Of a stretch of DNA of 64,000 nt, positions 7,671 to 64,000 are shown in pieces (positions within the stretch are counted from its first letter, which is position 1; each line of letters begins with the position of its first letter). The translations under genes were made by a program, and so were the position numbers. The DNA comes from a virus (lineage: Duplodnaviria > Heunggongvirae > Uroviricota > Caudoviricetes), in the IMG/VR virus record IMGVR_UViG_2778261161_000002, one strand, 5' to 3'. The notes beneath the pieces were generated by a model. That model was not told where the DNA came from and ran no database searches. It saw nothing but the letters and a program-made list of their open reading frames with translations.

Positions 7671-8669
7671 ATGCAATCACTGAATACTGTTACGGATCGC
7701 TTCTCCCTGGTAGAGAAAATCCGCAAACACACACCGCAGAACAACCGAAATTATGTCATTCAGTCGGTACGAGACACATTCAACTCGCCAGAAACAAAAG
7801 AGCGTATCGCGCTGGGTGAGATGTATGGTTATTACGGTCATGGTCGCCGGGCGATGCACTATAACAAAACGAAAAGCCTGAACTTGCCGGAAGTCTCTGT
7901 TGTGATGGTAGATGGGAAGCCTGTTGTATTGGAGAACGTGCCGTCAAACAGGACTATCGACATTTCGATTGACGACAACGGCATTGTTACGCATACGCAG
8001 GAAATACTGGATACAGACACCGGGCGTATTGTTCAGGGCATGATTAATTCTGGTGCTGGTGGTTGGTCGTGGGCTACATCTGGTCCAGATTCATCGGTAT
8101 CCCTGGTAAAGTCTTTCCACGGCTTTGATTACGTAACTGTGCCTAACTATATCAGCCTCGACAAGAAAAGCCTGATGCTTGAATCAGCAGAAGAGCGCGA
8201 TGCGGCTATTCATGCAGCACTTATCGAACAAGGTTTTACCGATAACGCTGCTACGGATCTGGTTCACCACTTTTCAGCAATGAAAAATCAGCAAGCCATG
8301 CTCGAATCTGCACATCGTGAAGCCCTGGAATCAGAATTGATGCTCCTTGAAGTGGAAAACATACAGCTTCGAGATAAGCTGCGCGCTCAAACAGCGATGA
8401 TGGAAAGCCAGGGGGAAAATGCAAAGCAATGCCGCCGGATTTTGCGTGACGCTATCCAGGAAATGCCTGTTTTTATCAGCGCAGAACAGCGCCGGGCGCT
8501 CTGCCGTATGCAGTCTGAAGATGATGCCCGCATAGTGGCTGCGATGCTTGAATCTCTTGGGGCAAATGCTACTTATGGCTTACCGGTATCAGGCAAGAAA
8601 GAACCAGAGTTATCACCGAAGGAGAACAAAAACACCACCCCGTTACTCTTCGTTTCTAGAAGGGGGTAA
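7671..8669 (+). CDS. putative head maturation protease / scaffold (Pro-like)
   Basis: 332 aa with C-terminal coiled coil; follows the portal-like gene. Confidence 0.3.
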   Translation: MQSLNTVTDRFSLVEKIRKHTPQNNRNYVIQSVRDTFNSPETKERIALGEMYGYYGHGRRAMHYNKTKSLNLPEVSVVMVDGKPVVLENVPSNRTIDISIDDNGIVTHTQEILDTDTGRIVQGMINSGAGGWSWATSGPDSSVSLVKSFHGFDYVTVPNYISLDKKSLMLESAEERDAAIHAALIEQGFTDNAATDLVHHFSAMKNQQAMLESAHREALESELMLLEVENIQLRDKLRAQTAMMESQGENAKQCRRILRDAIQEMPVFISAEQRRALCRMQSEDDARIVAAMLESLGANATYGLPVSGKKEPELSPKENKNTTPLLFVSRRG

Positions 8670-8675
8670 TCGCCT

Positions 8676-8697
8676 TGTTAAGTTAAATTTCTAACAT
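8676..8697. promoter_or_regulatory. TGTTAAG...TTTCTAACA motif (operator-like site A)
   Basis: member of the dispersed TTTCTAACA/TGTTAGAAA family; upstream of the RepL-like gene. Confidence 0.4.
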
Positions 8698-8782
8698 AGT
8701 GTATTTATATACACTGTTGATCCTGGTGGATGGGATCGAGTAGGATCGCGGTCACTGCTCCGGTAGCGACTGCCAAAAAAGC

Positions 8783-39257: not shown

Positions 39258-40174
39258 TCCGCCTCCTGCGGCGGTTCTGGTAGCGGCATCCAGTGAGTTA
39301 CTTTCGATGCCGGTTCTTCCCCATCGTCAGTAACTGCCCACCATTTGTTTCTCGACCAATCGTAATACCCTTCGAAGGTATTGCACTCAGTCCAGCCGTA
39401 AGACTTACCCCAACACCAAACATACTGTTTATCGTTCGGCATTCGCTCACTACAGCTTATCCAACTATCCGGAGTTCCCGGAGAGTTGCCATTTACATCG
39501 AAGTTTGGCTCTGCGTCCTGAACCAGGAGGATGTAACCATTCTTGGCCGTATCAAGTTCTAACGCCTCGGTGACGGTGCCGAAATAGCGATTACCTAAAT
39601 CAGCATCACAAGTGCTTACATCAATGGAAACTTCCATGCCTTCGATTAATTCTGGCAAGTTGTAAGTTTGGCTTACAGGTTGGCTACCCTGAAGCATGGC
39701 AGCGTGGCAGGCTTCATCAACCATAGCTTCTACGTTTTCGAGAAGTACGTAACTGTACTGCTGCCCACTAACCCATTCTTTTCTGCGAGGTAATGCGCGT
39801 GGGTCCGCTACAATGGTTCGCAAACGTTCCAGAACAGCAGGCACTACCGGCTCTACTGCCAACTGACTGGCATATTTGTTAATGGTAACGATAAGCTCTT
39901 GCTCGGCCTCATCCAGACAATCACCGATACCTCGCCTGTCACCGTCAAAATCATCGAAATCGGCACGAATCCTGGCAACCTCCCGGATTGCGGACAACAC
40001 TTCACCAGGAATAAGCGGAGAGTTGCCCGATAGTACATTCTGCTCCAGTGATGCCAGAGCAATTCGTGCCAGTTCTTCCGCTTCTTCTGCTGGCAGTACA
40101 ACGTTGCTACCAGGTCCGTATGTTTCGCGCCACTGCTTGATTGTCAGCAGTCGCTCTTTGGTAATAGTGGTCAT
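39254..40174 (-). CDS. DUF551-like C-terminal domain protein
   Basis: 306 aa; C-terminal WISC...W.W...HWMPLPEPP pattern. Confidence 0.45.
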   Translation of the reverse strand: MTTITKERLLTIKQWRETYGPGSNVVLPAEEAEELARIALASLEQNVLSGNSPLIPGEVLSAIREVARIRADFDDFDGDRRGIGDCLDEAEQELIVTINKYASQLAVEPVVPAVLERLRTIVADPRALPRRKEWVSGQQYSYVLLENVEAMVDEACHAAMLQGSQPVSQTYNLPELIEGMEVSIDVSTCDADLGNRYFGTVTEALELDTAKNGYILLVQDAEPNFDVNGNSPGTPDSWISCSERMPNDKQYVWCWGKSYGWTECNTFEGYYDWSRNKWWAVTDDGEEPASKVTHWMPLPEPPQEAE

Positions 40175-40180
40175 AGTTAG

Positions 40181-40561
40181 TTACTCTCCATAGTCTAATT
40201 TAACAAGTCGGCATTTGAGATATCCAAAATTCTCTGGCTTGGCATCTCTTAAATAAAATTCTTCAGGGAGTTTCCCCCTTATTTTTAATCTGCATAATTC
40301 TGTAAAAAACAACCCCCTATGATTTACAGGCTCACAACGCGGCATTATCACAAACAACCCAATCCTGCTACCTGATATCACAGGACATAACGCGGCATCG
40401 TTAATTGTCGACATTTGGCGCTCCTGCAAGTTAGCCAGCAAACCATGTAAAAATAGTTTCCATGATTTAAATGTTGGAATTTTTATCACGTAATGTCGCA
40501 AAACTATTACTACACGCGTTGCACCACGCCGGTTAATATAAGCTCGCCTGAAGTTTGTCAC
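40181..40561 (-). CDS. hypothetical protein
   Basis: 126 aa ORF; start uncertain. Confidence 0.3.
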   Translation of the reverse strand: MTNFRRAYINRRGATRVVIVLRHYVIKIPTFKSWKLFLHGLLANLQERQMSTINDAALCPVISGSRIGLFVIMPRCEPVNHRGLFFTELCRLKIRGKLPEEFYLRDAKPENFGYLKCRLVKLDYGE

Positions 40562-40615
40562 GGTCTAATCTCCACCCTCTGAATCTGACAGAGTTCGCGG
40601 TGTGTTAACGCCATA

Positions 40616-41113
40616 TCACTCTCCTTTGATGCGAATGCCAGTGGTACTCATTCTCCTGATTTCCCAGAGCACACGAGGAACACCACCGTTTCCGACCGGA
40701 TCGCGTTTACTCCGCAGGGCGACGCTTGATTCCGCCCAGCTTTTTCTTGGAGGAAGCTCTTTCACACGAACAAAACCAGCTGCGCGAAGAGATGCTCCTG
40801 ATTCATCTGCCTGGGTGTACGTAATACAACGTTGATAACCCATAGCTTTTGCTGCCCGCCAGATAGCACCATAAAGCGCGCTGTTAGCGTTGCGTTCTCC
40901 TGTGGTACATGTGCGATTTACTTCAAGCGTTAATCCATCGTCCAAATGTCGTGCAACAGGTCTACCGGCTGTCGCCACACCTATCAATTCTCCGGCATCA
41001 TTTCTCAGACCAATGCTGAATTTATGCCCCACCGGGGGTTTATTGTGTCGGTGATGTCTGGATATAAACGCCTTCGCAACACGAAGAGTAACCGGTGAAA
41101 TCTGCACTCTCAC
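40616..41113 (-). CDS. GNAT-fold-like phage protein
   Basis: 165 aa, GTG start overlapping upstream stop; C-terminus GIRIKGE shared with upstream gene. Confidence 0.35.
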   Translation of the reverse strand: MRVQISPVTLRVAKAFISRHHRHNKPPVGHKFSIGLRNDAGELIGVATAGRPVARHLDDGLTLEVNRTCTTGERNANSALYGAIWRAAKAMGYQRCITYTQADESGASLRAAGFVRVKELPPRKSWAESSVALRSKRDPVGNGGVPRVLWEIRRMSTTGIRIKGE

Positions 41114-55960: not shown

Positions 55961-56689
55961 TCATCTTTTTGAAAAATCAATTTCCGTTTTATCAAATAAA
56001 TTTGAAATATCAGCAACCAATTTATTAAAATCATGATCGCCATTATAAAGCGAAGTCTTCTTTATTGCCATTACAAAATCATATAACTTTTCTGGGGAGT
56101 CAATACCAACCCCTCTACTTTTAAAAAGCTCAATGATAACTCCAACATCATCATATAATAACTTTATTGCCGCCATAATCTCTTTTTGCTGCCTAAGCAA
56201 TCTCTCAAGTTCATTTTTATTTTCATCCATAATTCTTTTGTTGAATTGTGTATCATTAATACTTTTTATTATTTCAGTCTCTTTTATTTGCAACGCCTTT
56301 CTTTTATTTTGATCCATGTCGGCATCCAAATACCTTATCTCTGTATATATTTTACTTGTTAGCTTTGATACGCAAAGAGTGACAATCGGAGCTGCAATTG
56401 ATGCAATAATTCCAAAAATAAATGGCAAGCAAAAATGATAAAGCCAAGGAGACAAAACGCCTTCATAAACTAGAGGAATCTTACCTCCAACAAATGTTAC
56501 AGATAAAGTATATAGGATATCATCCTTTGACTTCATCAATATTAGTATATCTTTCCAATTAATAATTAGAAAAGAAATTAATATATATGCAAACACTTTA
56601 TTAAAAAGCTTGTCTTTTATGGCATCTCCAAAAGATACTTTTATTAGATCATTTTCAGTCAATTTTTCTGTTGATGAATCTGTATTCAT
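55961..56689 (-). CDS. AT-rich two-TM membrane protein with long helical C-terminal domain
   Basis: 242 aa; TM helices about residues 33-53 and 80-105; very low GC; no family recognised. Confidence 0.6.
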   Translation of the reverse strand: MNTDSSTEKLTENDLIKVSFGDAIKDKLFNKVFAYILISFLIINWKDILILMKSKDDILYTLSVTFVGGKIPLVYEGVLSPWLYHFCLPFIFGIIASIAAPIVTLCVSKLTSKIYTEIRYLDADMDQNKRKALQIKETEIIKSINDTQFNKRIMDENKNELERLLRQQKEIMAAIKLLYDDVGVIIELFKSRGVGIDSPEKLYDFVMAIKKTSLYNGDHDFNKLVADISNLFDKTEIDFSKR

Positions 56690-56751
56690 ATAAACTACCG
56701 TGATTTCTAATATCTATTTTATGAAAATAGCGGTCATCCAGACCGCCAAAC

Positions 56752-57111
56752 TCAAATACCAACCAAGCTTTCAAGAGGAATGCCAAACTGGGAATGTAAA
56801 CGGCGAATCATAGGTAACGTCAAATTTCGTGTCCCATTTAGCACTTCGTAAACACGATTTGACTTACCAATCGCCGGTTCCAGATCCTTCACGGTCAGCC
56901 CTTGCTGTTCCATACGGAATTTAATGGCCTCAATAGGTGATGGTGGCTCAATTGGGTAATGTTTTTTCTCGTACTCCTCAATGAGAAGACTCATAACCTC
57001 AAAGAAATCACCTTCCGGAGTATTCATTTCCGGTTCGTTATCGAACATCGGTTCGACCGCACGCAGTGCGGCCTCATAATCTTGTTCTGTACGGATAGGT
57101 TTAATGTTCAT
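56752..57111 (-). CDS. HigA-family (COG5499-type) HTH antitoxin-like regulator
   Basis: 119 aa; C-terminal GLTVKDLEPAIGKSNRVYEVLNGTRNLTLPMIRRLHSQFGIPLESL parallels E. coli HigA. Confidence 0.6.
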   Translation of the reverse strand: MNIKPIRTEQDYEAALRAVEPMFDNEPEMNTPEGDFFEVMSLLIEEYEKKHYPIEPPSPIEAIKFRMEQQGLTVKDLEPAIGKSNRVYEVLNGTRNLTLPMIRRLHSQFGIPLESLVGI

Positions 57112-57123
57112 TAATTACAAAGG

Positions 57124-57150
57124 AAAGCCCACTTGCTAAGTGGGCTTTTT
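57124..57150. terminator. intrinsic terminator hairpin (bidirectional)
   Basis: AAGCCCACTT-GCTA-AAGTGGGCTT with flanking T/A runs. Confidence 0.6.
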
Positions 57151-57167
57151 GTATGTGTTTTACTATA

Positions 57168-57506
57168 TCAGGCTGCTTTTTTATTCAGGTTCCGCTGAGA
57201 AATAAATTTTTCAGCAGTATTGATACGACTTAACTCTTCCTGAACGCGCATATCATTTTCGACTTCCCACAGATCTACTGCGGTCTGAAGATTAATCCAA
57301 AAATCTACAGAAGTATCGAATGCTTTTGCCAGGCGATATGCCATATCCATCGTTAGCTTACGATTATTATTAACAAGAGCACTTACGGTGTTACGATGAA
57401 CATGAAGTATTTCTGCTAACTCGTTGATCTTCAGCTCTAACGGCTCCAGGTATTCGTACAGCAGGATATCACCTACGGTCGTCGGTTTTCTGGTTGCCTG
57501 TTTCAT
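57168..57506 (-). CDS. higA: HigA antitoxin (XRE-family HTH)
   Basis: 112 aa; canonical HigA HTH pattern. Confidence 0.8.
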   Translation of the reverse strand: MKQATRKPTTVGDILLYEYLEPLELKINELAEILHVHRNTVSALVNNNRKLTMDMAYRLAKAFDTSVDFWINLQTAVDLWEVENDMRVQEELSRINTAEKFISQRNLNKKAA

Positions 57507-57576
57507 TTTTTGCCCTTACTAGCGTGCGTATTAAGTGGACTCTGGTCAGAACCCGGTCCGTAACCGGGTATCTGTT

Positions 57577-57879
57577 TTAGTATTTGTGAGGGTCGAGATA
57601 CAAGTCCTCGGCCTTTCCGTTAACCCACTTAAAAATTAACCTATATTGCTTATTCACCCTTACTGATGAATAGCCATTTAGCTTCCCTGACAGTTCCTCA
57701 TACCGATTACCTGGTGGTGATCTTAAATCCTTACAGGTAGTTGCGGCATTGATAATGTCCAACTTCCGTGACAATGTCATATGAATATCAGGAGGTATCT
57801 TTCTATGTGGTGTTGAAAATTCAAAAAAATCATCAAGCCACGCATCCCTGAAATCCTTTATGTTAATTTTTTTGGTCAT
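57577..57879 (-). CDS. higB: HigB toxin (RelE/ParE superfamily killer protein)
   Basis: 100 aa; F.D.WL..FFE ... GNRYEELSGKL ... QYRLIF killer-protein signature. Confidence 0.8.
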   Translation of the reverse strand: MTKKINIKDFRDAWLDDFFEFSTPHRKIPPDIHMTLSRKLDIINAATTCKDLRSPPGNRYEELSGKLNGYSSVRVNKQYRLIFKWVNGKAEDLYLDPHKY

Positions 57880-60581: not shown

Positions 60582-61231
60582 AGCGTAGAGCGCAAATTGT
60601 TGGAACTGTGCACCCGGCAGGGCTTATGCGTGCTCAAGTCCGTGTTTTACCTGACTGGAATGGCGTTCCTGATGACGATCTACCCTGGGCGGAATACCAG
60701 TTACCCATCGGGAACGCTTTTGTACCTACAGTCAAAGGTGACCTGGTCTGGGTAGAGTTTCCTTATTTAGATGTTAACGGTCGAATAGACACCAGACGCC
60801 CAATGATAGTTGGTGCCGCTCAGGATGCACCGGGAGGAATTCCAAACGTTGCACCAGAAGCATCTGGCAAAGGCAACGGCTGGACGCCGCCGGAAGTAGA
60901 TGGAGCACCTCCCCGCCCCCAAATCTCAGCAACGAAAGACTTCGTTATTCACCGCAACAATATTCTTGAAGTACGAACTGCTGGTGGCGGCTATGAAATT
61001 GCCAATACGGCAGCTGGCTCAAGGATTGGCATGAATGAGTCCGGGCAGATATATATCATTGGTCCGGCTGATGTAATCGTGAATGCAGGAGGGAGTGTTA
61101 ACGTCAAATCAGCCAACAACATCAATGTTAATGGGGAAAATATAGCTGTCACCGCTAACGGGGACATAGCTTTCAAGGCAGGAGGAACCTTTCAGGCCAC
61201 TGCTGGCAACTTCGATTTCAAGAAAGGATAG
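60578..61231 (+). CDS. baseplate spike protein (gpV-like)
   Basis: 217 aa; N-terminal OB-fold pattern (GDLVWVEF) and Gly-rich beta-helical C-terminus. Confidence 0.55.
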   Translation: MKRRAQIVGTVHPAGLMRAQVRVLPDWNGVPDDDLPWAEYQLPIGNAFVPTVKGDLVWVEFPYLDVNGRIDTRRPMIVGAAQDAPGGIPNVAPEASGKGNGWTPPEVDGAPPRPQISATKDFVIHRNNILEVRTAGGGYEIANTAAGSRIGMNESGQIYIIGPADVIVNAGGSVNVKSANNINVNGENIAVTANGDIAFKAGGTFQATAGNFDFKKG

Positions 61232-61247
61232 AAAATGCACCCATTTA

Positions 61248-61282
61248 TGTTAGATAATTAACATGCATTTTCTAACATAAAT
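61248..61282. promoter_or_regulatory. TGTTAGATAATTAACA palindrome plus TTTTCTAACATAAAT (operator-like site N)
   Basis: motif family member immediately upstream of the rdgC homologue. Confidence 0.45.
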
Positions 61283-61290
61283 GGTGAGAC

Positions 61291-62196
61291 ATGAGATCAG
61301 TCGCTTTCAAAAATATCTTCATCTATCGTCTTTCACGCGAAGTTAACTGGGATACCGCAGAAGTAAATGCTGCCCTTAGCAAGTTTGTGTTTACCCCATG
61401 CGGTTCTCAGGATATTGCTAAAGCTGGTTGGACCCCCGTCCTTGGCGACAACCTCACCCATGAATACAAGGGTTTTCTTCTGATACAGCATAAACGAGAG
61501 GAAAAAATCCTACCTTCTCAAGTGCTCAAAGAAGAGCTACAGAAAAAAATCCTGAAACTTGAAGAAGAACAAGACAGAAAGCTGAAGAAGACCGAAAAAG
61601 ATTCGCTGAAGGATGAAGTGCTTCACTCTCTTCTTCCTCGTGCTTTCACGAGAAAATCAGTCGCTAAAATCCTGATAGACCGAAGCAATCATCTGGTTTT
61701 TGTCGAGGCGAGCAGTGCTAAAAAAGCAGAGGATCAGCTGGCTTTGTTACGGAAATCTCTTGGCAGCTTGCCCGTTGTCCCCTTCTCTCCGAAAGACCCA
61801 TTAGAACTGACCATCACTGGCTGGATTAAAAATGGCTTCCCGAACGGTTTCCGTGCCGGTGAGGAAGCGACCTTAAAAGCATTGCTTGATGATGGCGGCG
61901 CGGTCCGCTGCAAAAAAGTGGACCTGCTATCCGACGAGATCATGAGTCATATAGAAGCTGGTAAGGTTGCAACCACAGTTGCGGTTAACTGGCAAGACCG
62001 TGCATTTTTCAGACTGAATGACGATATGAGTATCAAGGCTTTGTCGTTCAGCGACGAATTGTACGACCAGAACGACGATATTGATCGAGGGGATGTTGCT
62101 CAACGATTTGACGCTGACTTTATCCTGTTTACTGCTGAATTATCAGCGATGTTCACTTCGCTGGTGGAGGCCGTTGGTGGTGAAGCAGAACGTTAA
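61291..62196 (+). CDS. hrdC: RdgC homologue (recombination-associated protein)
   Basis: 301 aa colinear with E. coli RdgC ([50 protein letters not shown]). Confidence 0.85.
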
Positions 62197-62209
62197 CAAT
62201 AGACCTCTT

Positions 62210-62860
62210 ATGGTGAGTCTTTGTGATTTCACGGGGAAAATGGTCGCCCCCTGGCTGGAGCATGGTATAGATGCTGTTATCGTCGATCCACAACACGCAA
62301 AGACCACAGATGAGCTGATGCAATCAGGCGCAGTTCTGACACGTATCAGTGCGATTATCGATAGTGATGAAGTTTATGCTTTTCTCCGAAATAATTTACA
62401 ACGTATTGTGTTTTTAGCTGGTTTTCCGCCGTGCACGGACCTTGCTGTTTCCGGTGCGCGCTGGTTTGCACATAAGGCTGACAAAGATCCGGTTTTCCAG
62501 TTCAAAGCGATGCAAGTCGTCTGGCAGTGTTACGACATTGCAAAGATGATTGGTTTCCCGTACATGATTGAAAACCCGGTCAGCCAAATATCGACATTCT
62601 GGCGTAAACCTGATCACATCTTCCATCCTTACCACTTCACTGCATATTGCAAGGAAGACAATTACACCAAAAAAACATGCCTCTGGAGCGGGCAGGGCTT
62701 TGTCATGCCTGATGCCCTAATGGACGAATCATTAGGCAAGCCAGATAACAGAATCCATACCGCGCCACCTGGGCCTGAAAGGGCTAATTTTCGAAGTGCT
62801 ACTCCGAATGGATTCGCAAAAGCAGTTTTCGAAGCAAATAAGGGGGTGCTCTATGAGTAA
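62210..62860 (+). CDS. compact C5-cytosine methyltransferase-like protein
   Basis: 216 aa; FPPC (motif IV-like) and IENP (motif VI-like); no separate target-recognition domain. Confidence 0.5.
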   Translation: MVSLCDFTGKMVAPWLEHGIDAVIVDPQHAKTTDELMQSGAVLTRISAIIDSDEVYAFLRNNLQRIVFLAGFPPCTDLAVSGARWFAHKADKDPVFQFKAMQVVWQCYDIAKMIGFPYMIENPVSQISTFWRKPDHIFHPYHFTAYCKEDNYTKKTCLWSGQGFVMPDALMDESLGKPDNRIHTAPPGPERANFRSATPNGFAKAVFEANKGVLYE

Positions 62861-63758
62861 ATCTCTAGTAAGCACAGCCATAGAAAGACATGATTCGATG
62901 GCGGAAATTAGCTATATGCGCACCATTCGGACTCCGGATGAATACGAGCGTCCGATCTTCAAATGGGTAGGCGGTAAATTTTCAGAGTTGCCTATAGTGC
63001 TTGAGCATCTACCACACGGTAAGCGGTTAATAGAACCATTCGTTGGTGGCGGTTCCGTATTTACGAATGCAGGATTTCGCCACAACCTGCTTAATGATAT
63101 TAACGGTGACTTGATTAACTTCTATCAGACATTGCAGCGAGAAAGACATTCTCTAGTCACGCTGTCATATAGTTTTTTCCAAAATTACAACAACGCTGAC
63201 GCTTACCTCGAAGTGCGTGAGGCATTTAACAGAGGAAAGTATGACCAACTACATCATGCTGCTGCCTTTTTGTACCTTAATCGGCACTGTTTTAATGGCG
63301 TAACACGGTACAACCAAAATGGCGAGTTCAACGTAGGGTATGGTAAATACAAAGCGCCCTACTTCCCACATGCAGAGATGGAGGCATTTTTGGCTGATGA
63401 CGTACTCAAAAACACTTCCTTTGTATCAGGTGACTTTGCTGGCGTCATCGAGGCGGCTGGTGAAGGCGATGTGATTTTTTGCGATCCGCCGTATGAACCG
63501 CTGCCGGATACAGAAGGGTTTACCAGTTATTCAGGAAATAGCTTCCGTTTCGACGAACAGAAACGGCTGGTATCTCTATTGGTGGAAGCCCACCAGCGCG
63601 GCGCTAAGGTAGTGATTACAAATAGTGGTGCGCCAAACATCCGTGAACTATATGAAGGAAACGGGTTTAAAGTACATCATATGGCAGCCAGACGGTCGGT
63701 TTCCTGCAAGGCGTCAACACGTGTAGTTGCTAACGATATAATTGCAATAATGAAGTAA
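62853..63758 (+). CDS. Dam-like N6-adenine DNA methyltransferase
   Basis: 301 aa; FKWVGGK, EPFVGGGS, DPPY motifs; start overlaps upstream stop (ATGAGTAA). Confidence 0.8.
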   Translation: MSKSLVSTAIERHDSMAEISYMRTIRTPDEYERPIFKWVGGKFSELPIVLEHLPHGKRLIEPFVGGGSVFTNAGFRHNLLNDINGDLINFYQTLQRERHSLVTLSYSFFQNYNNADAYLEVREAFNRGKYDQLHHAAAFLYLNRHCFNGVTRYNQNGEFNVGYGKYKAPYFPHAEMEAFLADDVLKNTSFVSGDFAGVIEAAGEGDVIFCDPPYEPLPDTEGFTSYSGNSFRFDEQKRLVSLLVEAHQRGAKVVITNSGAPNIRELYEGNGFKVHHMAARRSVSCKASTRVVANDIIAIMK

Positions 63759-63761
63759 AAA

Positions 63762-63787
63762 ACGCCGCAGTAGCGGCGTTTACTTTT
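63762..63787. terminator. bidirectional intrinsic terminator between convergent genes
   Basis: ACGCCGC-AGTA-GCGGCGT with A-run before and T-run after. Confidence 0.7.
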
Positions 63788-63806
63788 TCATGTGGCGAAA
63801 TACCTA

Positions 63807-64000
63807 TTAACCTAACTTCGCCCAGGTATCACGCAGCCCAACGGTGCGGTTAAATACCGGTTTTTCCGCCGTAGAATGGCGGCTGTCGAGGCAGAAATAA
63901 CCTTCACGCTCAAACTGGAATGCTTTACCCGCTACCGCTTCTTTCAGCGACGGTTCAGCAAAGCCTTGTTTGATCACCAGCGATTCCGGGTTAATCACCG
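63807..64000 (-). CDS. glnS: glutaminyl-tRNA synthetase, 3-prime end (partial, continues beyond window)
   Basis: minus-strand translation [18 protein letters not shown]...[35 protein letters not shown] matches E. coli GlnRS C-terminus as recalled. Confidence 0.8.

Follow-up and report, generated by a model that had tools for sequence, protein, structure and literature searches.

In phage P1, an RdgC-family gene (hrdC) directly precedes dmt, in the order Pdmt-uhr-hrdC-dmt, with the repressor-controlled promoter Pdmt answering to C1. Dmt is a fusion of 754 amino acids (aa), with a PF00145 cytosine-C5 methyltransferase domain in its N-terminal part and a PF02086 (Dam) domain at residues 493-725; the first-pass annotation of the DNA studied here, which cited P1 dmt as a single bifunctional gene, was right on this point. 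The P1 record itself credits Dmt with C5 activity only as "perhaps." Escherichia phage D6 (GenBank MF356679) has three genes instead, orf65, orf64, and orf63, annotated as RdgC, a putative DNA-cytosine methylase, and a Dam "similar to C-term half of P1 dmt only." The present analysis concerns positions 61291-63758 of a 64,000-nt stretch of IMG/VR virus record IMGVR_UViG_2778261161_000002 (the whole stretch is called the window below), where an rdgC homologue is followed by genes for a compact C5-cytosine methyltransferase-like protein and a Dam-like methyltransferase. The arrangement is not new, since the D6 record annotates its three genes alike. The region is likely to be a DNA-methylation operon of a D6-like phage-plasmid, a counterpart of Pdmt-uhr-hrdC-dmt that combines a compact C5 methyltransferase with Dam.

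A relative of the middle protein has been studied experimentally in K42, a T1-like phage 95.4% identical to KarlJaspers (Bas06). K42 mutants that escape retron Ec86 have disruptions in a 711-bp "Dcm-like" gene, whose product puts 5-methylcytosine (5mC) on the multicopy single-stranded DNA (msDNA) of this retron, as seen by LC-MS (liquid chromatography coupled to mass spectrometry). Expressed alone, the enzyme is enough both to form 5mC and to trigger the retron; a C82A/E128A/K175A/K176A mutant shows no activity, and the authors of the preprint modelled the protein on DNMT3A (all from bioRxiv 10.1101/2023.08.16.553469).

The compact methyltransferase-like protein

The compact gene lies on the plus strand at 62180-62860, with two candidate starts. 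The ATG at 62210 gives a protein of exactly 216 aa, ending at 62860, and residue numbers below refer to this form; an in-frame GTG at 62180, 9 nt after a GGAGG (62166-62170), gives 226 aa and a 17-nt overlap with the end of rdgC, and is the start chosen by the D6 annotators. The protein belongs to PHROG 757 ("DNA methyltransferase"; phrog_757, E 1.7e-76 over residues 2-214). The first-pass annotation had called it C5-methyltransferase-like, and this is confirmed by three kinds of evidence: the invariant Pro-Cys cysteine and ENx glutamate, a DNMT3-like predicted fold, and homology to the studied phage Dcm.

The motifs that can be read along the protein are LCDFTG (residues 4-9, motif I-like), D26, I50-D51, FPPC with Cys75 (motif IV), ENPV with Glu121 (motif VI), K154-K155, and RSATPNGFAKAV (195-206). 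Their conservation was taken from an alignment of 130 family representatives (50% clustering). Neither catalytic residue is missing from any of them: Cys75 and Glu121 are invariant (130/130), as is Pro123, while the Asn of ENPV is found in 124 of the 130, and D26, G82, K89, K154, T156, W159, R195, T198, and P199 are nearly invariant. One family member provides a further, unusual view of the cysteine: in a 548-aa protein (P0215), an intein with a Hint and a LAGLIDADG homing-endonuclease domain is inserted between GFPP and Cys (junctions ...GFPP/CFTGDTLV... and ...VVHN/CTNLSVSGARW), so that the putative catalytic Cys would double as the +1 splicing nucleophile. This fits an active-site role for the FPPC cysteine.

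An AlphaFold2 model of the protein (predicted local distance difference test, pLDDT, 81.8; predicted template modelling score, pTM, 0.82) has its strands and motifs in the order of C5 cytosine methyltransferases: strand 1 and a Gly-containing loop; strand 2, ending at D26; I50-D51; strand 4 (69-71), followed by the Pro-Cys loop with Cys75, which is flexible and modelled with low confidence; strand 5 (118-121), ending in Glu-Asn with Glu121 at its end; a short conserved segment; and a C-terminal helix (GFAKAVFEAN) at the place of motif X. The top Foldseek matches to this model are DNMT3A/B (probability 0.99), with bacterial C5 enzymes also among the best, and the best matches in the viral structure library BFVD are phage "DNA-cytosine methylases." Some very large phage proteins with helicase regions also match the predicted fold in BFVD. 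The likeness to DNMT3 has its limits: the DNMT3A and DNMT3B catalytic domains have only 10-15% identity to the compact enzyme, which is no sequence-level relationship, and DNMT3 enzymes, unlike this one, have regulatory domains and work as oligomers with DNMT3L.

The protein had also been described as having no obvious target-recognition domain, which is correct as far as a large one is concerned: between WRKPD and RANFRSATP there are just ~55 residues (136-190, including DNYTKKTCLW.G.GF.MP). These are conserved, however, and stand, as in DNMT3 enzymes, where the target-recognition domain is expected, so that this domain is minimal rather than absent.

The 711-bp gene is found in KarlJaspers (MZ501090) at 40087-40797, and its product is also phrog_757 (E 6e-86). 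The compact protein matches it over its full length in BLASTP, at 37% identity (E 3e-42). A homologous protein of 236 aa is encoded by phage tonnikala; a direct count puts C, E, K, and K at its positions 82, 128, 175, and 176, and these align with C75, E121, K154, and K155 of the compact protein. The two groups thus share family, size (216-236 aa), catalytic and DNA-contact residues, and a DNMT3-like model, and by this homology the D6-type enzyme may be expected to form 5mC as well. They differ in motif I, which is the canonical FDGSG in the T1-like enzymes, and in the target-recognition segment, which is longer in those enzymes by 14 inserted residues; the D6-type clade has LCDFTG and DPQH. 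The specificity of the K42 enzyme is reported as CCWGG. The genetic setting differs too: the KarlJaspers and T1-like gene has neither rdgC nor dam beside it, dam being ~6 kb away in KarlJaspers.

Several observations weigh against this assignment or at least against its details. The compact protein has no Pfam match even at E <= 10, PF00145 included, and no NCBIfam match; phmmer and profile searches of the PDB found no sequence match, and no C5 methyltransferase. Compared with the N-terminal half of P1 Dmt, BLASTP found nothing and hhalign gave a probability of 0.25%. Motif I reads LCDFTG where FxGxG would be canonical, and the consensus of the family, [F/C/Y]-D-x-[T/S]-G, retains only the last Gly (in 103 of the 130 representatives); with so odd a motif I, binding of S-adenosylmethionine (SAM) is presumed. 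The experimental evidence comes from a relative with 37% identity, from a preprint, and from a dcm+ host. Oligonucleotide statistics of the 64-kb window give no clear hint of a target site: observed/expected ratios are 0.25 for CTAG and 0.59 for GGCC (both without a host-genome background), 0.73 for GATC, ~0.94 for CCWGG, and 1.25 for CCGG. Finally, RefSeq labels the compact protein "hypothetical protein" (NZ_AP022217, locus L001, 7211-7861), and its PGAP annotation calls dam [quoted passage not shown] (7941-8759 of the same record, corresponding to window ~62940-63758). Because the sequence links to known C5 methyltransferases are all negative, the C5 assignment is based on the motifs, the fold prediction, and the published homologue. 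The "hypothetical" label is probably explained by a family without a Pfam or NCBIfam model, and the "incomplete" flag on an intact dam probably arose from comparison of a linker-bearing Dam with longer, fused Dmt-type proteins.

The family is large: clustering at 90% identity gives more than 6,884 clusters, and at 50% there are 2,521 representatives (E <= 0.001), with nearly all members of 200-260 aa. By tblastn, 1,588 phage records contain matches, among them T1-like, Webervirus, Dhillonvirus, rV5-like, and Campylobacter phages. Within the family, the D6-type clade is remarkably well conserved, linking the E. coli element with prophages of Pseudomonas, Agrobacterium, Cronobacter, and Kushneria, at ~60% identity. 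The triad of RdgC, compact methyltransferase, and Dam recurs in two more distant P1/D6-like elements, with compact enzymes 62% and 76% identical to this one; in the Kushneria prophage the compact gene adjoins an RdgC gene, while in Agrobacterium the RdgC gene is seven genes upstream. In other lineages the compact gene stands by itself, within the early or nin regions of lambdoid prophages. Domain additions are also seen: one member (P0177) has a C-terminal HNH domain, and another, of 563 aa (P0121; locus L015, 218-1909), is a compact C5-type domain (2-253) fused to a D12 Dam domain (303-546), analogous to P1 Dmt but containing the minimal enzyme. This fusion is known from a single 2-kb metagenomic contig only, and is given little weight.

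The probable operon and its relation to P1 and D6

The segment 61291-63758 has 89.7% DNA identity to Escherichia phage D6, and over 61000-64000 (the region plus flanks) plasmids of ~90 kb from many E. coli strains match with 99.8-99.9% identity; at least 80% of this 3-kb query is present in 85 of 5,426 complete E. coli genomes. These matches identify the window as a D6-like phage-plasmid of E. coli, related to P1. On one flank of the operon are baseplate/tail genes similar to P1 genes 7, 24, 6, and 5; on the other is a phage-borne, convergent, full-length glutaminyl-tRNA synthetase gene. The three open reading frames (ORFs) were all found on the plus strand at the coordinates given in the first-pass annotation, and are co-oriented and overlapping. 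Chance is not a plausible explanation for them, because the ORFs are long and their family matches very strong.

The first ORF (61291-62196, 301 aa), counterpart of P1 hrdC and D6 orf65, had been called an RdgC homologue, and the family models agree: it matches PF04381 over residues 6-298 (E 4.6e-101, 338.5 bits against a cut-off of 25), the NCBIfam RdgC model NF001462 (383 bits, cut-off 330), and phrog_724 (E 8e-126), and is 54% identical to P1 HrdC (E 4e-112). In E. coli, RdgC forms a dimer shaped like a ring, which binds duplex DNA and is an inhibitor of RecA.

The third ORF (62853-63758, 301 aa) is a Dam-family N6-adenine DNA methyltransferase, as had been proposed from its sequence. It matches PF02086 (D12 class; E 2.9e-56, 191.5 bits against a cut-off of 22) and TIGR00571 dam (248 bits, cut-off 115), and has recognizable FVGGGS (SAM motif) and DPPY (in CDPPYEP) motifs. 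Residues 6-300 are 66.4% identical to residues ~462-753 of P1 Dmt, the N-terminal ~32 residues being homologous to the Dmt interdomain linker; from its 66% identity to the Dam half of Dmt, it would be expected to recognize GATC. The ATG at 62853 is preceded by AAGGGGG and overlaps the stop codon of the compact gene (ATGAGTAA), but is in another frame, and the first of the two ORFs ends at its TAA (62858-62860): the C5 and Dam functions are in separate polypeptides.

The operon would end with a hairpin at 63760-63781 that resembles a bidirectional intrinsic terminator, between dam and the convergent phage-borne glnS; its 9-bp stem contains 6 G-C pairs, and each strand has a T-run. At the upstream end, an inverted repeat at 61241-61284 has perfect 14-bp arms (CCATTTATGTTAGA ... 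TCTAACATAAATGG) and ends 6 nt before the rdgC start, its 3′ arm overlapping the rdgC Shine-Dalgarno sequence, GGTGAG. As RNA, it has a folding energy of -18.8 kcal/mol (z -4.7). A weak sigma-70-like site at 61229-61258 overlaps the repeat. Substitutions in D6 fall at mirror positions of both arms, so that symmetry and pairing are kept. The repeat may be an operator or a regulatory RNA hairpin of the operon. It was also considered as a dispersed operator like the P1 C1 sites, and this is ruled out by the absence of further copies of its arms in the window: there are none with 2 or fewer mismatches, and when 3 are allowed their number is that expected by chance.

D6 resembles the window in the order and orientation of orf65-orf64-orf63, and in their place between baseplate genes and phage-borne glnS; protein identity is 90.7% for the compact methyltransferase and 97.3% for Dam, and the differences are only allelic, including the mirror-image substitution pair in the upstream repeat. 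P1 resembles it in having an RdgC-family gene followed directly by cytosine-C5 and Dam functions, with the linker included in the homology of the Dam halves. It differs in having both domains in one polypeptide, with a canonical ~460-aa PF00145 C5 part, where the window has two genes; the window also has no uhr gene upstream, and its promoter/operator is not the P1 C1 operator.

The first-pass annotation described the two methyltransferase genes as a split relative to P1 dmt. There are indeed two genes, and the Dam half is orthologous, but this is not a simple split, as the C5 part is of another family (PHROG 757, against PHROGs 116/363 for Dmt). Simple fission of a P1-type dmt is ruled out by the lack of relationship between the C5 parts in BLASTP, hhalign, and PHROG assignment. 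By these comparisons, the position in the operon has been kept while a canonical ~460-aa C5 domain and a ~220-aa minimal enzyme replaced one another, together with a fusion or a fission.

Possible mechanism and alternative readings

The three genes would be expressed as one transcript, ending at the 63760-63781 hairpin. The RdgC homologue, if it acts as E. coli RdgC does, would bind duplex DNA and restrain RecA-dependent recombination on phage or plasmid DNA. The compact protein would be a SAM-dependent C5 methyltransferase cut down to its catalytic core, using the standard chemistry: the target cytosine would be flipped out, the Cys75 thiolate would attack C6, Glu121 would hold or protonate N3, and the methyl group would go to C5. 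The ~55-residue segment with K154 and K155 would stand in for the target-recognition domain, as in DNMT3. Dam would methylate the adenine of GATC. Both methylases would pre-modify the DNA of the element, and that of the host during plasmid carriage, which would blunt restriction when a new host is entered; if P1 is a guide, methylation of GATC would also license pac cleavage for packaging. Of this account, the analysis establishes the gene structure, the family memberships, the conserved catalytic residues, the fold similarity, and the synteny with P1 and D6; 5mC formation itself comes from the preprint on the homologue with 37% identity, and what the enzyme targets, when the genes are expressed, and what they do for the element are inferences.

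Some other readings can be considered. The compact protein might use its C5 scaffold for another reaction or substrate, such as transfer of a non-methyl group (for example carboxymethyl from carboxy-SAM, Cx-SAM), action on single-stranded DNA or RNA, or a hypermodification step. This is unlikely, as the K42 family member is reported to make plain 5mC, the operon neighbors are only RdgC and Dam, with no partner genes for cofactor synthesis or further modification, and the same protein occurs alone in the nin regions of lambdoid prophages. It might also have no sequence recognition of its own and be an obligate partner of Dam, the two forming a non-covalent Dmt in which it relies on the DNA binding of Dam and modifies, for example, cytosines at or near GATC. 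The overlapping stop and start codons suggest translational coupling, the triad is kept in P1/D6-like elements, the presumed target-recognition segment is very small, and fused C5-Dam enzymes exist, in P1 and in the compact-domain fusion mentioned above. That fusion, though, comes from one short contig; most phages with the compact gene have no adjacent dam (among them the T1-like phages, prophages of Cedecea and Pseudomonas, and KarlJaspers with its distant dam); and the K42 enzyme needs no partner for 5mC formation or retron triggering, all of which makes an obligate Dam partnership improbable.

The linker-like N-terminus of Dam, together with the PGAP labels (dam a partial pseudogene, the middle ORF hypothetical), could instead be taken to mean that a P1-type dmt broke and decayed, leaving the two methylase genes as its remnants, at least one of them non-functional. 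We consider this very improbable. Both ORFs are intact, with their own Shine-Dalgarno sequences and all catalytic motifs; Dam is nearly identical to D6 orf63; the middle ORF is unrelated to the N-terminal half of Dmt; and the two-gene layout persists in other elements at 62-76% protein identity, which implies purifying selection. For dam itself, the intact ORF, Shine-Dalgarno sequence, motifs, and conservation rule out a pseudogene. A methylation operon with a working compact C5 methyltransferase and Dam is the preferred reading.

Within this preferred reading, the D6-type clade has its own invariant signatures, LCDxTG and DPQH. It is conceivable, if rather doubtful, that the D6-type enzyme is not a plain CCWGG Dcm mimic, and has a very short or relaxed target, or an altered cofactor, suited to broad anti-restriction; such an enzyme might, during plasmid carriage, imprint a 5mC pattern of its own on the host chromosome, or trip defenses that sense methylation, of the retron Ec86 type.

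Neighboring genes and significance

The convergent glnS (glutaminyl-tRNA synthetase) gene is on the minus strand at 63807-64000 and continues past the window; D6 (orf62) and the near-identical plasmids have the whole gene. Its part in the window is matched in 5,425 of the 5,426 E. coli genomes, mostly at 95-99% identity, and since it is matched in essentially all of them it looks like a captured host gene. Phage-borne glnS has been discussed as a possible maintenance or fitness gene (PMC6799933). Farther upstream, between tail genes (55961-57879), are a 242-aa ORF on the minus strand (55961-56689; D6 orf73), with no Pfam match, and, next to it, a HigB-like toxin gene (57577-57879) and two helix-turn-helix (HTH) antitoxin-like genes (57168-57506 and 56752-57111). 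The 242-aa ORF lies in a markedly AT-rich patch, with a GC content of 0.30-0.35 at 56000-57000 where the window as a whole has 0.475, and may be a recently acquired cargo gene.

As discovery, the locus adds little: the D6 record already annotates the trio, and the phage family of the compact enzyme is large and includes a member that has been studied. The practical value is in annotation, for a large family that has no Pfam or NCBIfam model and for an intact dam flagged as an incomplete pseudogene. The locus is also a clean example of one enzyme type being replaced by a sequence-unrelated one at a fixed position in P1-like operons. For the hosts, the module, carried on a D6-like plasmid in ~85 of 5,426 complete E. 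coli genomes, could add both cytosine and adenine methylation to the host genome and interact with defenses that sense methylation.

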